The position numbers were made by a program, and so were the translations under genes. The notes below the pieces were generated by a model. It searched no databases. It was not told the origin of the DNA and saw nothing but the letters and a program-made list of their open reading frames with translations. Below are positions 12,846 through 64,000 of a DNA stretch of 64,000 nt, in pieces. Source of the DNA: Glaucostegus cemiculus (taxonomy: Eukaryota); assembly GCA_976551045.1 (NCBI GenBank), contig CDPCPM010000023.1:2666001-2730000 (forward strand), in the 5' to 3' direction. Positions within the stretch are counted from its first letter, which is position 1. The number at the start of each line of letters is the position of its first letter.

Positions 12846-12846
12846 A
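12826..12846 (-). promoter_or_regulatory. RE1/NRSE (REST binding site)
   Basis: The minus strand reads TTCAGCACCGCGGACAGCGGC, 19/21 to the consensus TTCAGCACCACGGACAGCGCC, with both half-sites and the 2-nt spacer intact. Confidence 0.9.
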
Positions 12847-13502
12847 TGATCAGCTCAGTGCACGTCTCCACCTCCCGCGGCAGCACACCAGGGAAGCGAC
12901 CTCCCTCCGCGACATGTCTGATCGAGGAGATGGGCAAGGGCGACGACAACGATCGCATCGTGATAAACGTGGGAGGGACTAGGCACGAAACGTACCGGAG
13001 CACCCTGAAGACCCTGCCCGGCACTCGGCTGGCATGGCTCACCGAGCCCGGCGCCTTCGCCAATTTCGACTACGACCCCAAGGCGGGTGAGTTCTTCTTC
13101 GACCGCCACCCGGGGGTCTTCGCTCACATCCTGAACTACTACCGCACGGGCAAACTGCACTGCCCGGCCGACGTGTGCGGACCCCTGTACGAGGAGGAGA
13201 TCGCCTTCTGGGGCATCGATGAGACTGACGTGGAGCCTTGCTGCTGGATGACTTACCGGCAGCACCGAGACGCCGAGGAGGCTCTGGACAGCTTCGAGTC
13301 TCCCGATCTCAACAGCGGCGATGGTGACGGCGGCGGCGGCGGGGGAGACGGGGTCGGGGACTCGGAGGACGAGCTGGACACCAAGCGCCTCGCCCTCGGA
13401 GACTGTTCCCCTGAAGCCGGAGCGAAAGCCGGCTGGTGGAGGAAATGGCAACGCCGCATCTGGGCTCTCTTTGAAGACCCCTATTCCTCTAAATATGCAC
13501 GG
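12846..13502 (+). CDS. KCNC1: KCNC1/Kv3.1 coding exon 1: 28-aa N-terminal extension, T1 (BTB) tetramerisation domain and T1-S1 linker. The canonical Kv3.1 Met is at 12930.
   Basis: [37 protein letters not shown]...FDYDP...[37 protein letters not shown]...[21 protein letters not shown]...KRLAL...[15 protein letters not shown] is Kv3.1-like, including the compact T1 without the Kv3.2/3.4 insert and the Zn-binding HX5CX20CC motif. Phase-0 donor CGG|GTAAGG at 13502/13503. Confidence 0.96.
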
Positions 13503-51997: not shown

Positions 51998-52931
51998 TAC
52001 TGTGCTTTTGCTTCACTTTTCTTCATCTTGGTGTCAATCAGCACCTTCTGCCTCGAGACCCATGAGGCATTTAACCCAATCGTTAACAGAACGGAGATTG
52101 TAAGGAATGGAAATGAAACCCGGATGGAAACTATTCAGGAAACAGAAACAGAAGCCTTCTTAATGTACATCGAAGGAGTCTGTGTGGTATGGTTTACCTT
52201 TGAATTTCTCATGAGGATCACTTTCTGTCCCAACAAAGTGGAGTTTATCAAGAATACTCTCAATATCATAGACTTTGTCGCCATTCTGCCCTTCTATCTG
52301 GAGGTAGGACTCAGTGCTTTGTCTTCCAAAGCTGCTAAGGATGTTCTGGGCTTCCTGAGAGTGGTTCGCTTTGTCCGAATCCTGCGAATCTTCAAGCTGA
52401 CCCGTCATTTTGTAGGACTGAGAGTTTTAGGACATACTTTGCGTGCAAGCACCAATGAATTCCTGCTGCTCATCATCTTCTTGGCACTTGGCGTCCTGAT
52501 ATTTGCCACCATGATCTACTATGCTGAGAGGATAGGTGCTAATCCCCATGATCTGAGAGCCGATAAACACACACACTTCAAAAATATTCCGATTGGATTT
52601 TGGTGGGCCGTAGTAACCATGACTACACTTGGCTATGGAGACATGTATCCTCAGACATGGTCGGGCATGTTGGTAGGAGCCCTCTGTGCTCTTTCGGGCG
52701 TGCTGACCATTGCTATGCCAGTCCCTGTCATTGTCAATAATTTTGGAATGTATTACTCCTTAGCGATGGCCAAACAAAAATTACCAAAGAAGAAAAAGAA
52801 GCATATACCGAGACCGCCCCAGCTGGGATCCCCCAATTATTGTAAATCTGGTGTAAACTCTCCACATCACAGTACACAGAGTGACACATGCCCACTCGCT
52901 CAGGAAGAGATTTTAGAAATAAACAGAGCAG
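51998..52931 (+). CDS. KCNC1: KCNC1 coding exon 2: S1-S6, pore and proximal C-terminus (spliced form)
   Basis: Acceptor ttttccttcacAG|TAC (51996-51997) restores [13 protein letters not shown]. Contains S4 [18 protein letters not shown], pore [13 protein letters not shown], the Kv3-specific S6 MPVP, two S1-S2 N-glycosylation sequons (NRT, NET) and [26 protein letters not shown]. Phase-1 donor GCAG|GTAGGA at 52931/52932. Confidence 0.97.
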
Positions 52932-56690: not shown

Positions 56691-59150
56691 TATATTTCTA
56701 AGAAAAATGCCTTGGCAGTGTAGGTACAGTTGCATTTAATTGAACAAAGCCAGAGTATGATGGATAATACACATTTTGTACTGCTTCTAAAGTTAGCTGT
56801 CTCCAGTTGGCATTGTTCCCTTTCCCATGTGGTGTCCCCTTGCACTGCACAAGTGGACGCTATGTACCGAAATATAAATGAAGACAAACTGAGAGCGAGA
56901 GAGAAGGTGAGAAGAAGCACATTTCTGACGTCTTGATCTATGGCAACAAGGCTACTTGCTGCTAAATTATATAAAAGGAATTAAACCTCATATGTTTAAT
57001 TAATGAGCTGGTATTTAAACTGTCCAATTATGATGTAACCAAAAGCATTTCAGTTACTGAAAACCATAGTATTTTAGTCTCCAATTCAGTGTGTTCTTCC
57101 AAGCATTTTGCAACTTTCTTTTTATATTTTTCACACCTTTGTCTTCTGTTTCCCATTTTATATCATGCTTACTAAAACTCAGCATTTCTTTCCCCATTCA
57201 CAATAGTCTTTGCCTTCTGTACACATTTACTCTATTTCACTCACGATATTTGATAGCTGTGGGAGGGAATAGAGATCCTTTCTTTGTAACAAATGAAAAC
57301 ATGAGGGCTTTAATATTGTATCCTATAGCACAGCATTTATGTGCGCTATAAGATACAATTTCATCAGAAAATAAAAATGAAGGATGTTCCAGGACTTGCT
57401 GAGTACTCTGCCAAGTCTGGGATCTTCCTTCCTTCTGGGTGCTCTGTGCATCCAATACACTAAGACACAGAAGTGTCTTGCATGCACAGCAGCATCCAAA
57501 GTCACGAGCTGCACATGTAAACACACTTGCTTGGTTTTCATACATATGTGCATGGCCTGTAACCTTGGCAGACTTGTGTCCTGCTTTGTTGAAGCTTAAA
57601 GGGGAAGAAACAGAGCAGGCTTCCTTCACTGTGGAGTATGGTGTTGAGAACTTACTTCAGGAGACCCACTAAATTAAAAAACTCACTGTGGTTCTCTCTA
57701 TGCCCCCTCCCCCAATTTCCCAAACTAATTGTAAAACCAACTCTCCTCCTCAATTTGAGTGTGCCGTTGACTAACCACACCCCCAACTCCCACATTCACT
57801 GATTACCACCGCCCCCCCAACCCTGATTTTGACTGCCCACTCCTTGAGATCCAATCCTGTCCAAGTTCTGTGACCTCCCTGTTTGGGGTTTTCTCCCATA
57901 TTTCCCACCCTCCTCCACCCCCAACAACCTGTGATTCATGAACCAGCCTCATGACCTGCCTGTTTCCCTCAGCAGTGGGGGACTTGTCAGAGAAATGACC
58001 TTTGATTACATTTATGGTGCAAGGCTCCCTCCAAGGTGCCTTGAGATTCCAAAATTTTGTAGCAGTGGGTCCTCGAGCAAAGCTTCTGTTGGCCTACTGT
58101 TCATGGCTTGTTTTGCTTGTCTTTCTACACAGTGTTTCCTCGGCTGATGTGCTTCAATGCATCTTGATGCATGGAGCTAAAAGATAGCTGCAAATGGGAA
58201 TTTAAAAAGGAAAGGATAACAGGGAGTCATCCTATGGGTAGAAAGTTAATGGGGAACAGGATGTTGCATTTCGAATCATATTTTGCATTTTTTATTAACT
58301 GCTTTTGCCTTTTTTTTGGTTTTATCTGCTAATTATTTTAACACTTCATTATAGAACTATGGGGAAAGGGACTAAGTGGATAGTTTTATCAATGATCTGG
58401 CAAAAAAAAACAATGTACCAAATGGCCTTCCCTGCTGTAATTCTGTAACTTCAACATTTTCCTATGAAGGGAATGACCCTGAATTCAGTTGACAATGGAC
58501 TTTGTTAAAGGATGCTTTTGGCTAATAGGTCAGACTATTGCTGCCCGATGCCACATGGTAATAGGCTGCACAGGTGATTAAAAGCTTGTTGTGCATAAAA
58601 CAAACTGAGCATAACAATGTGTTGGAATAAGTATTACTTACAACTTCAGCTTTTAACAAATAGAATGGTCTACAGGCATAACTTGATTTTCTCTCCCCAG
58701 TCATTTTTGTGCTAAGCTCAATGGCCACAGAATAGCCTTCATTTAAACTTCCTGATGGTGGTCTCATACTACAGACACTGCATTAAAGTATCAACTGTAG
58801 AAAACATGAATTGCAACAGCAGATATCTATGTCCCTCCATCAGCCTGTTGTTACAGAATGTCGTCTCCCTTTTACAAAGTCCTGCTCATTCTGCTCCATG
58901 CACACAGAGAGTAGTTACTTTTGCTTAGAATTGTTGAAATCTATCTCTCACAACCTTGGTGCCGTTGCTTACTATATTTATGTGATATTATTTGCCAATG
59001 CAAAATATTTTATTGGCTGAATGTGCTGCCTCTGGAGTAACTTTAGTTGATTGCATAGAGCGTTACAAACCATAGATTCTGCTAACCTTTAGTAAGAAAC
59101 ACAAACATAGTACTTAGCATTTCATTCAGCTTTTGCTTGTATATTTGAAG

Positions 59151-59348
59151 ATTTTAAACAGAACGGTGATGCAGCAAATGCAGCATTGGCAAACGAAGAT
59201 TGTCCTCATATTGACCAGGCACTGACGCCTGAAGATCACCTCCCCTTCACTCGTTCTAACACCAGGGAGAGGAATGCCAGAGACGGGCCCTGCTTCCTCT
59301 TATCAACCGGGGAATTTGCATGTCCACCCGATGGAGGAATAAGAAAGG
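59151..59348 (+). CDS. KCNC1: KCNC1 exon 3 (Kv3.1b-type distal C-terminus), not in the ORF track
   Basis: AG at 59149-59150, 198 nt, phase 1-1. Translates [66 protein letters not shown], versus mammalian [63 protein letters not shown]. Donor G|GTACGT at 59348/59349. Confidence 0.95.
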
Positions 59349-60629
59349 GTACGTAACACACAGGCAAGATACGTAACCTTATAGGTATATATATCAATCT
59401 GTTAATCTAGTATTGCTAGGATATACAGCTGCATTGGGGGAAGGTTTATCATGGATTAATAAGCAATGCTTAGCTGTGTAGAGTAATTGTCTATGAAATT
59501 CCATAGAGATTTTAGAAAGACGCTAAGCGCCATGAATTAAAGTGTAGAATTTCATTCAAGTCCTCTCACTGGTGTATTGTATATATATATATGTATATAT
59601 ATAGATCTATACATAGAGAGACAGTATTATCCAAACCATACCATTGGTGTGGTATATAGGAGCTTCATGTGCCATTTCTGATGGACAGTCTTCTATAGAG
59701 AACACTTAATATGTAAATATAATTTATAAAGTAAATTAAAAGCCAGACTAAAAAAAATTGATCACAACACTTTCATAAGAAAGTAGCTTGAAAACCTCAG
59801 CTAAAATTATCTTTGTAGCAAAGTGTTGAATTTGATTCCGTATTGGACAGATTGGCTAAAGAGTAATTCACTAGTGTGTTTCAATGTCAGCATATTGTTG
59901 GCCCGTGGAAGTGTGTTTCTACCAGCATGAACGATGGAAACCTTTCAGCTTAAATCCATCCTGTATGTGTTCTTGTAGATCTGTTCAATGTTAAGTTCTT
60001 GTGCATGTTTGAAATGGAATTGGTTGCATGTCTAGTCTTTAAATGCTTCAATGGACTTCAGAATAGTATCAAATTGGCATCAAAACGAGACCAATTCCAA
60101 CTGAGATGAAAGACTAAAGAGTTCCCAGGCTTTCCTTCAAGCCAATTCATACATTATATGGGGTGAGTTATCAGATCAAACACACATCAATCAAGTTTCC
60201 ACCATGGAAGTGACATAAAGGGTTTTCATGAAATTAAATTTGACAAAGTAAACTTGTTAATAAAAGAAATAGACAAATGGAATGACTTTGGCATGGCTTA
60301 TCTAACCAGAGCAAACTGAACATTGGATTTTCTGTTCGGCTGGTTTAATTAGACATCTTTTCAGTGTTTACTACAGTTGGCATTCATGTCTGGGTCTTAG
60401 AGAGCCGAATAACTAGATGGAATAAACTACTCAATATCTTGCTAATCAGTTTAATATATTAATAACAAATAGCCTCATATTTCTAATGTATTTACTATCT
60501 AGCAAAAGCAGTGATTTCTTCCACAGTCTGAACATATATGAAGCTGAGGCACTTCCTAATTTAAAAACAGAGAATTGTCAATTGTAGTGGGGAGTTGCCA
60601 GTGGGGAAAGGAGATGGGAGGGGGGCAAT

Positions 60630-60870
60630 TTGGTGAATTATGTACTGGTCTTTCACCTCTAGCACCTGAATTCAATCCAAAACTCTATCTATGGGATTAA
60701 ATTCTCCTTTAGTTGGCTGATACTCTGACCGGCCTTAAAGTACTTCCGCATAGGAATGGACATTATGCTCCAAGGTCCAAGTCTAATTTGGCAGTCTCAC
60801 ACTCTGAAGTGTATGGGAAATGGAAAGATTGCACTCTGTAGGTAGTGTTCACTAGAGCCTAGGAGTTACC
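60630..60870 (+). mobile_element. Ancient tRNA-derived SINE relic, LF-SINE-like
   Basis: Ordered short matches to my recollection of the LF-SINE consensus: ctttcacctctag, ttcaatcca (B-box-like), ttggcagtctca. Confidence 0.4.
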
Positions 60871-62090
60871 ATACTATCTGAATTAGTGATGCGAATGCAG
60901 GAAATGCTGATTGGAAATTACTGTTTCTTCAACACTGCTATCCCTTTCCTCCACTCTTCAAAATTCACGTAACAAGTCTGATTTGAAAGCAATGCATAAG
61001 AACCTCTGGAAAGAATTTTCCACCAATATCCCTACTGAGCCAGTGTGGTTGCTATAGTAATTGTTTGGATTAAAATCAATTTTCCCCGACTCCTAACATA
61101 TCGATTCTTAAAAAATGTACTTGTTCTCATTTTCTACAACGAAACCCCTACCATAGAAAAATTCCATGATGCAGACCAAGTGGGCTCCTATGCTGAACAA
61201 TTCCATGATTCTGTACAATGTGGCATCTGCTCAATTGATTTCTGTATTTTTATTTTCTAATAAAAACTTAGTTTCAAAGCAGTATTGCCCTGGTTGATCT
61301 CCCTCAGAGTATTTGCACATATCAGTTTAAATCTCAAAAGACTGTGTTTTCCATCTTGACCTGGCACACAGCTTCTGTTTTAGAGTCAGGATTGCCAGCT
61401 GTAACAGCATCACCAGTCACAAAGTAATTTTCATTTGGGCAAATATTCCCCCACCTCATGCAATAAAAGTCCAACTACTTCACACAATCAGCCTATGGTA
61501 AATATTCAATAAGGCAAACAAATGCAGATGCATAAGAAGTTGATGGATACCTGTAGACAGCAGAAGCTGGGTGGAATTGGACTTGGCAATTGATTGCAGG
61601 ATGGTTAGATTTAGGTTCCTTGCTTGGTTCAGTGTATTTGACTGAAATATTGCCACCTCAGGGATGACATGAGAATATGATAGTGTCAACAATTTTTTAA
61701 CCTATTAGTTGTGTGAAGTAGCAATTTGACCTAAAACTGACAGTCAGAACTCCAGAAATGGTAAATTAAAATACAAAAAAACCCCAAAATTAATAGCTCA
61801 GAGTAACAACACTATAGACTGCTTAGCAAAGTAACACCACATCCAACATAGTCTATCACATCACCTGAGTTCTTTTTTAGAAGTCAATGCCTGGTGAAAT
61901 AAGGGTAGTTAACTTAGGGATGTAGAAGCAATCCCTAGTAACCACTTCTCTTTGTCTTTCATTAACAGTGATACTACTCTGAGCATGCAAGTGCATGGAG
62001 ATGCTTTATCAGACTGGCAATGATGTAGACTCATCATTATCCATTCTATTGTTGATCCAATGCTGTACTTTGCATTTTTCCTACATAAAG

Positions 62091-62230
62091 GTTTTGAAAA
62101 CTCAAGGAGCCTAAGCAACAGAGCTGGCATGAGCAGAAATATACTAAAATTGCCTTCAGTGTCTTCTTCGCTCTACAGCTCTCCTTGTCCATTGAGGCTT
62201 TCTCCGTCTCCCATACCATCCATTTTATAG
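62091..62230 (+). CDS. KCNC1: Alternative last coding exon encoding a Kv3.2b-like tail [46 protein letters not shown]
   Basis: Pyrimidine tract plus AG (ctttgcatttttcctacataaAG, 62089-62090). Phase 1 fits the exon 3 donor, and the frame is open to TAG at 62228-62230. Colinear with Kv3.2b [45 protein letters not shown]. Confidence 0.85.
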
Positions 62231-62874
62231 CATGGATTAGTAGCTGAGAATGGTCCAAAGCTTTAGTCCTACAGCCTATACTGTCTTGCATAAAACCAGG
62301 TAATAAGTCTGAAGATTGCATGTCTCTAGGTAGCACCTTGCTGCTGGTGAATCTACTGTTGACATTAGGTGGGACAATCCTCGTTGATTTCTAAATGGGA
62401 TCGCACAGGCACATGATGGCACCAGTGGTCTATATGCTACATGTGTTTGGTGCATAAATGGAAATAATGCAGCTACATGCAGTTCCCAGTAATTGATGAT
62501 CCAGCCCACTGCTTTGGGTGTGCATTTGTCCATTTGTGAAAACACTGGCTCTTTGGAAATGGGTAACATTTATGTTTATTGGTGCACCTGGTCAACGTTT
62601 GAAGATTTCTTTCTCAGGATCTTTTGACCATATGACCCTGAGGGAGTTCACACAAACATGCAGTTTGAGGTGCCATTGCATGGAAGCCAAACTGATTGCG
62701 AGCAATACTCTTTAGAGGTCCCAGTTAACCTGGGTGCATGTGAAGGTCTTTAGAAGAAGGATACTGCCCCCTCTGCATGTAGCTATATTTTTTTTAAGCA
62801 GAAACAAAATGCCACATTTATATTGAAGGGCAGGGGAAAGAAGGTCAAGTATTCACTGTATTCTTTGCATGCAG

Positions 62875-62939
62875 ATTTCTGCAAAGGCAGCCCTGTCATT
62901 GCTAAATATATGCAAGCAGGGGCAGTCAGAGTAACTTAA
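62875..62939 (+). CDS. KCNC1: KCNC1 last coding exon of Kv3.1b ([21 protein letters not shown])
   Basis: Acceptor ttctttgcatgcAG (62873-62874), phase 1, TAA at 62937-62939. Matches mammalian [21 protein letters not shown]. Full b isoform is 617 aa, or 589 aa from 12930. Confidence 0.94.
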
Positions 62940-64000
62940 TGAGCTGGGACAGAATTGGACGCTCTGTGGGCAATTATCTGCCCACTGGGAACATTTCAAG
63001 AAAAGAAGACCCACCTCTTTAGGACAAGCAAAGCTACTTCAAGCCGAACAGGCTTCTAAGGACCATGTGTGTAACAGATTTGACCCAGAAATGCAGGCTT
63101 TCTAAAGCCCAATTTTCCAAAAAAAGGTAGAAGATTTGTATTTGTTTGCTAGCATGAACTGCATGTTATAGAAACTGTAATTCTATGATTAACCTTTAAA
63201 TCAGAAGTTCTATTTCCTTCCAAAATACTTTACTTTTACAAAACTTTGATGTGATCATAATGTAAGAGTTAACTATATTTATTTGCAATGGATAGCTTTT
63301 TTTGTATTATTCATGAAACAGTGCAAGATTAGAGAAAACTGTATGTAGATGGCGATTGGTCATATTGACCACTCATCCGTGCTTCAGATCTCCATCTGAA
63401 ACAAGCCGTTAAAACTATGTATTAAGAAAGCACTTCTGCCCCTGTATCTGATTAGGATGGCATGCTAGTAATCTTGTATTTTCTGGACATCATGTGTATC
63501 TATAAATATTAACTCTTCATCCAGATGGTCTTAGCCTCTGCATTTACAAGTGTATATTTCAGACTTGCAGACTCTAAATTAGGAAGCGTGCATTTCATTG
63601 AACAGTACCAATTTATCTGCGCCATTTTCCATGGCAGGACTACTGGTCCAAGTCAGCGAATGACTTCACTCGAATTTGGTCTCCTAAAGTTGGAATCAAT
63701 ACTTCAGCACTGTATGCAATTTAGTTCTGAATACATGCATGCACAATATAATATGCAAAAAAAAAGTTCGAGCATGAAATAAATTTTGTATTAAATCGGT
63801 CACTGCCTGCATGGTTTGATTTATTTTTGTTTTCAATAATGTGAGTCTTGCATTGATGAATCCCCCGTGGTCTCCAATGACAAATCAGGAGAGTCAGACT
63901 GGAAACATCAGGTGCTTGGCTCATTTTCAAACAATCGATGAGTGAGTATGGAGTGGTAGTGCTCTACCACAGGCTGGGAAAGCTGTTACTTATCACCAGA

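Follow-up and report, generated by a model that had tools for sequence, protein, structure and literature searches.

The Kv3 channel gene carried by the window, the 64,000-nucleotide stretch of Glaucostegus cemiculus DNA analyzed here, is confirmed to have a real and spliced coding exon at 62091..62230 that gives the channel a C-terminal tail ending in PSIL. The exon lies upstream of a second acceptor used for a Kv3.1b-type tail. We hold it about 70% probable that a choice between these two acceptors yields the channel either with a PSIL tail or in its b form, the PSIL tail likely acting as a sorting signal of the PDZ type that affects the location of the channel and not its gating. A PSIL-tailed KCNC1 is already present in public gene models and has apparently gone unstudied.

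As read from the sequence, the gene occupies the forward strand of the window in four parts: exons 1, 2 and 3 and a terminal region. The coding part of exon 1 (12846..13502) encodes the T1 domain, starts at either an in-frame upstream ATG at 12846 or the conventional ATG at 12930, and ends at a donor at 13502. Exon 2 (51998..52931) encodes S1-S6, and reading through its donor to 52963 gives a Kv3.1a-type tail and a protein of 512 aa from ATG 12930. Exon 3 (59151..59348) ends at a phase-1 donor at 59348/59349. In the PSIL isoform it is followed by an intron of 2742 nt (59349..62090, GT..AG) and then by the proximal 3' splice site and the PSIL-tail coding part (62091..62230). The next segment, 62231..62874, is 3'UTR for the PSIL isoform and intron for the b isoform. 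It is followed by the distal 3' splice site and the Kv3.1b-type tail (62875..62939; 21 aa including the split codon, giving a 589-aa protein when ATG 12930 is the start) and by a shared 3'UTR (62940..63830). The candidate first poly(A) hexamers of the latter are at 63778 (AATAAA) and 63790 (ATTAAA), the cleavage sites being putative. One contig stops near 63830 and another near 66060, and the shared 3'UTR may therefore continue for about 2 kb more past the window end.

The PSIL-tail exon and the identity of the gene

A first-pass annotation made from the sequence had described an intact, phase-compatible exon of 46 aa that is homologous to the PSIL tails of the Kv3.2b/Kv3.3 type and ends in an S-x-L class I PDZ pattern, and all of these points were borne out. 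The acceptor (...TTTTTCCTACATAAAG|GT at 62090/62091) is in phase 1 and fits the donor of exon 3 (AAG G|GTACGT at 59348/59349). The frame from 62093 encodes 45 aa, or 46 with the split Gly, and its stop ends at 62230; frame, acceptor and the exact splice joint described below agree. Because 7 of the 232 AG dinucleotides of 59349-62874 are followed by an open frame of at least 45 codons in the same phase, the open frame alone is not significant, and the case for the exon is carried by homology and splicing. The tail shares 64% identity with the tail exon of KCNC2 in this genome (reverse genome-wide search, E 1.7e-7), and the KCNC3-class exon matches as well. It is the KCNC2-tail identity together with an exact GT..AG joint in four of four runs that places the exon above chance. 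The tail is rich in Ser and Pro (13 Ser/Thr, three SP sites) and ends in S-I-L. Class I PDZ ligands have a C-terminal S/T-x-hydrophobic pattern, to which this end conforms as a sequence pattern, and the PSIL end is found in 15 of 15 aligned tails. The length of 642 aa given earlier holds when counting starts at ATG 12846, which adds 28 aa and is also the start used by shark and ray RefSeq models; from ATG 12930 the PSIL isoform is 614 aa.

Membership in the Kv3 family is clear, with a near-identical relative (P0004, used as the query) scoring ~1000 bits against human Kv3.1 structures and at most 300 against other Kv families; the Pfam domains PF02214 and PF00520 are present. The genome has four Kv3 loci, on contigs C23 (the window gene), C28, C226 and C141. 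In trees built from exon 2, the window gene was placed with tetrapod KCNC1 on one side of a branch with support of 93/88 in the first tree and 80/86 in the second, which is moderate support for KCNC1 orthology, neither node being starred. The first of these trees had two long outgroups and was short of six intended rows, and the second had 22 rows and was run without outgroups. The C28 locus grouped with KCNC2 and the C226 locus with a clade labelled 'KCNC1-like', whose frog member is in the same 90% cluster as coelacanth kcnc3a. Avian KCNC3 is often misnamed KCNC1-like, according to passages of PMC10241522, and C226 and the 'KCNC1-like' clade probably belong to the KCNC3 class. The C141 locus appears to be KCNC4-like. 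Both KCNC1-type tails are encoded in the window, the a tail being that of the bird protein P0156 and the b tail resembling that of the cat protein P0137. The neighborhood on contig C23 gives a mixed picture. Amino-acid hydroxylase genes, probably TPH1 and TH, are located at 2.61 and 5.0 Mb, the first 58 kb upstream of the Kv3 gene and the second 2.3 Mb downstream of it. In human, the neighbors of KCNC1 are TPH1, SERGEF and, next to it, MYOD1. A search of the 10.3-Mb contig C23 detected no myogenic Basic-domain gene, and the hydroxylase gene 58 kb upstream in its stead hints at a local rearrangement.

Splicing at the 3' end of the gene

Evidence for the splice joints comes from 4 of 24 listed runs, which represent four studies and four related organisms and are all in the form of assembled contigs. 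The stretch was not present in any run recorded as RNA; the type of these four is only guessed to be RNA, with one run flagged 'probably DNA', and the contigs have no tissue label. The joint 59348>62091, with GT..AG ends, was present in contigs of all four runs (depth 32.1, 18.6, 57.2 and 32.2), and the b joint 59348>62875 was present in two of them, X1 and X3 (depth 29.5 and 145.2). This was the junction comparison proposed in the first-pass annotation, and at the level of contigs it upholds the spliced third isoform claimed there. In X1 and X3, the proximal (PSIL) joint accounted for 0.52 and 0.28 of the summed depth of both joints. Contig depth reflects expression poorly, and each joint has 27-30 letters on its short side. 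Depths on the donor side were roughly balanced (87.7 vs 90.1, 289.7 vs 305.3 and 52.1 vs 67.8). In the two other runs the PSIL joint was the sole exon-3 joint listed, and one contig extends from 62090 to beyond 63400, crossing the b acceptor without interruption.

A single exon-3 donor is thus found with two acceptors 784 nt apart, both joints occurring in runs X1 and X3, and contigs are continuous over 62231-62874. Neither AATAAA nor ATTAAA occurs in that interval; the absence of the former had been noted before. Because contigs cross the b acceptor and the two sites have no poly(A) hexamer between them, the simplest reading is that two competing 3' splice sites are used on one terminal exon with a common 3'UTR, as had been suggested. 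The accompanying label of an extra last exon was less apt: with contigs continuous into the b region, the 62091 exon is more aptly viewed as extending the terminal exon at its 5' side than as a last exon in its own right.

Other transcript forms around exon 3 are possible or appear in gene models. All four runs have contigs over intron 3 (59349-62090), with depths similar to those of the spliced joints, so part of the signal over the exon is unspliced RNA or DNA; the coverage could reflect a retained-intron form, pre-mRNA or DNA. Read-through into intron 3 would stop the protein two residues past the donor, and short read-through ends of a similar kind are modelled in a paralog (P0190) and in a turtle (P0170). 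For sharks, a ray and a bird, RefSeq also has models in which exon 3 is left out and exon 2 is joined straight to the PSIL exon (P0002, P0003, P0005, P0144). The bird KCNC1 models P0136, P0140, P0142, P0145 and P0148 have another C-terminal tail of ~60 aa, attached after exon 3 or directly after exon 2; one sequence with this tail was seen on 21 contigs.

Conservation of the tail and age of the two-acceptor layout

Across five sharks and rays the tail is identical at 43-46 of 46 positions, and the window tail is the same as that of Hypanus sabinus. It matches the KCNC1 tails of birds, turtles and a caecilian at 25-28 of 45 positions, and the KCNC2 and KCNC3-class tails at 29-30 of 45. Bird and lizard KCNC1 tails share 39/45 residues. 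Between shark and bird the KCNC1 tail retains 27/45 residues and the KCNC2 tail 42/45 (44/45 between shark and vole), indicating that the KCNC1 tail has drifted more. From shark to bird, KCNC1 nevertheless retains the reading frame, the position of the stop and the PSIL end; the caecilian tail is degenerate and amniote tails are one residue shorter.

Thirteen of the 18 listed shark and ray RefSeq proteins of the window gene carry the tail, the predicted PSIL forms being designated X1 with lengths of 639-642 aa. The shark and ray models (XP_038663493.1, Scyliorhinus canicula X1, 641 aa; XP_041053706.1; XP_069770179.1; XP_059829920.1) have the same exon, join and upstream start and tails 93-100% identical to that of the window, from which nothing material differs; they are unreviewed predictions that also include exon-2-to-tail skips. 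Among tetrapod KCNC1 RefSeq proteins, 18 of 45 listed end in the tail (birds, turtles, lizards and a caecilian), typically with a length of 609 aa. In these models (XP_009890317.1, 609 aa; XP_034626096.1; XP_028588589.1; XP_030056944.1) the homologous PSIL tail follows exon 3, as in the window. The exon is not a hidden one, since RefSeq already predicts the tail in all of these groups; a shark-specific novelty was likewise rejected because the tail is in bird, turtle, lizard and caecilian models too.

None of the six mammalian KCNC1 proteins listed has the tail, which is a weak sample. The main cluster is led by a bird and has 662 members, 15 of them listed, and clustering at 90% could conceal a 609-aa mammalian form within it. 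No mammalian KCNC1 representative was among the matches listed in a search with the shark tail (151 matches from 171 candidates, best 120 listed) or in one with the bird tail (13 matches from 20 candidates), and a search of the ESM Atlas with the tail gave no usable match. A human KCNC1 database isoform is probably ~609 aa long, the length expected of a PSIL form. Thirteen GENCODE v28 transcripts are given for human KCNC1 (PMC6889285 supplement 3).

The PSIL exon was found at three of the four Kv3 loci of the genome: KCNC1 in the window, KCNC2 on C28 and the KCNC3-class gene on C226, the latter two exons being 137 nt long. At all three loci it is in phase 1, runs for 137-140 nt to the stop, and has a b-type acceptor lying 751-1107 nt beyond its own. 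The PSIL forms of KCNC2 (638 aa in the vole, P0059) and of the KCNC3 class share this exon, phase and order; they differ in being products of paralogous genes, the KCNC2 tail being far more conserved than the KCNC1 tail of the window. The vole form is named Kv3.2b. Because the same two-acceptor order is seen in KCNC1, KCNC2 and the KCNC3 class, the layout likely predates the vertebrate duplications that gave rise to KCNC1-3, in keeping with the pre-duplication arrangement put forward earlier. The KCNC3-class paralog has one AATAAA in the matching interval, unlike the window gene. At the fourth locus, neither a PSIL nor a b-type exon was detected within 50 kb past exon 3 (C141:11026200-11076199), and its PSIL exon was not found genome-wide either; it may lie farther off or be too diverged. 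The exon-3 frame of C141 ends in a short read-through.

Comparison of the paralogous exons by a rough NG86 calculation over 44 codons gave dN 0.21/dS 1.04 and dN 0.23/dS 1.51 (dN/dS ~0.15-0.2), and was saturated for C28 versus C226. Most of the differences are third-position ones, numbering 18, 22 and 24 as against 8-11 at first positions, which points to selection on the peptide. The C-termini of Kv3.1, Kv3.2 and Kv3.3 may be drawn from one ancestral splice menu that was pruned differently in each gene.

Possible role of the tail, alternatives and precedents

Fast spiking is set by Kv3.1, whose two described tails determine whether the channel is placed in axons or in dendrites. Passages of PMC6218699 state that Kv3 gating is unaffected by C-terminal splicing and that Kv3.1a goes mainly to dendrites and Kv3.1b mainly to axons, and a passage of PMC13282929 (citing Deng 2005) has a C-terminal PDZ-binding motif directing Kv3.3 to dendrites. 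Most KCNC3-class proteins in this analysis have the PSIL tail at their end, and this tail may be the Kv3.3 dendritic PDZ motif. In the mechanism we propose, the exon-3 donor is joined to the proximal or the distal acceptor to give the PSIL-tailed or the b form. The PSIL form would keep exon 3 and have the b tail replaced by the Ser/Pro-rich tail with its class I PDZ pattern. As there is no junction after its stop, the PSIL mRNA should evade nonsense-mediated decay, and the PSIL-tailed protein would be made. The pattern at its end predicts that the tail binds a class I PDZ protein, by which it would serve as a sorting signal altering the location of the channel rather than its gating. By likeness to Kv3.3, the PSIL form would probably be sorted toward the soma and dendrites.

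Of the alternatives, one accepts splicing and translation of the exon but regards it as a weakly selected ancestral leftover decaying lineage by lineage, with Kv3.2 and Kv3.3 subunits supplying the same tail in heterotetramers. The faster divergence of the KCNC1 tail fits such relaxed selection, as do the degenerate caecilian tail, the failure to find the exon for the fourth paralog within 50 kb of its exon 3 or genome-wide, and the six listed mammalian proteins without the tail. We nevertheless judge this explanation unlikely given the near-complete retention of residues among sharks and rays and between bird and lizard, the frame, stop and PSIL end that persist from shark to bird, and the two runs in which the PSIL joint is the only one listed for exon 3. 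Acceptor choice could also operate mainly at the RNA level, the ~640 nt of conserved 3'UTR that it adds affecting where the mRNA is localized, how stable it is or how much b form is made, with the peptide in a secondary role. In line with this, 62090-63400 aligned unbroken in all relatives examined, with an identity of about 95% or higher; pieces of the intron were ~14-20% different or could not be aligned. The concentration of paralogous-exon substitutions at third codon positions speaks for the peptide, however, and makes a primarily RNA-level role improbable in our estimation. As for an artefact, in which the joint would stem from assembly of paralog reads or from a processed copy and the exon would go unused, the reliance on contigs, the guessed run type and the short joint sides are what could be said for it. 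Against this, contigs from four organisms and four studies place the joint precisely at the predicted GT..AG, the same join is carried by RefSeq models of many species, and 61900-63900 has a single genome match, itself, on which ground a processed copy was rejected. We give the artefact hardly any credence.

A broader version of the sorting-signal reading is put forward only tentatively, and we lean against it: the PSIL form would be a major, and in some tissues the dominant, long Kv3.1 isoform of non-mammalian vertebrates, with a Kv3.3-like dendritic address, and the mammalian a/b arrangement would be derived, the exon having been lost or having gone unrecognized. If this were true and the exon persisted unrecognized in mammals, Kv3.1b antibodies and exon 3-4 primers would miss a real isoform. 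Kv3.1 may also be undercounted in birds, reptiles and cartilaginous fishes wherever detection depends on the b tail alone. The value of the result is that of a comparative detail on a known kind of splicing.

The earlier statement that mammalian Kv3.1 is described with a and b tails only agrees with passages of PMC10241522, PMC11320344 and bioRxiv 2024.11.12.623225, where two variants are given; the window, carrying the same gene, encodes a PSIL tail in addition to a-type and b-type tails. Five predicted finch Kv3.1 transcripts of differing C-terminal length are mentioned, uncharacterized, in the passages of PMC10241522. No description of a PSIL tail on KCNC1 was found in a literature search with thin coverage of subscription journals, including most older Kv3 splicing papers; a match to 'Kv3.1c' was discarded as a typo for 'Kv3.1channels'. 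The cloned Xenopus laevis 'Kv3.1' (kcnc1.S; AAD52813.1, P0197, 592 aa) has both the name and a homologous PSIL tail, but falls within the KCNC3-class clade (99/98) and not with frog KCNC1 models. It is therefore likely a misnamed paralog and no precedent for the KCNC1 isoform.

Variation was also noted at the start of exon 3 and at the N-terminus. Exon 3 has three in-frame acceptor choices, at 59130, 59151 and about 59184, of which contigs, beginning at 59149 in all four runs, favor 59151 as the main one. The choice adding 7 aa corresponds to a 7-aa insert seen in KCNC1 models of 592 aa from mouse, guinea pig and deer, and the one removing 11 aa to 598-aa bird models and some shark and ray models. 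The second ATG is the start of the bird model P0034. The upstream ATG (12846-12929) adds a basic N-terminal peptide of 28 aa that is retained in shark and ray KCNC1 models. This peptide shows homology to the N-termini of shark and frog proteins of the KCNC3 class, but has His instead of Cys at position 6. It resembles the Kv3.4 inactivation peptide, and shark Kv3.1 may have retained an ancestral inactivation ball.
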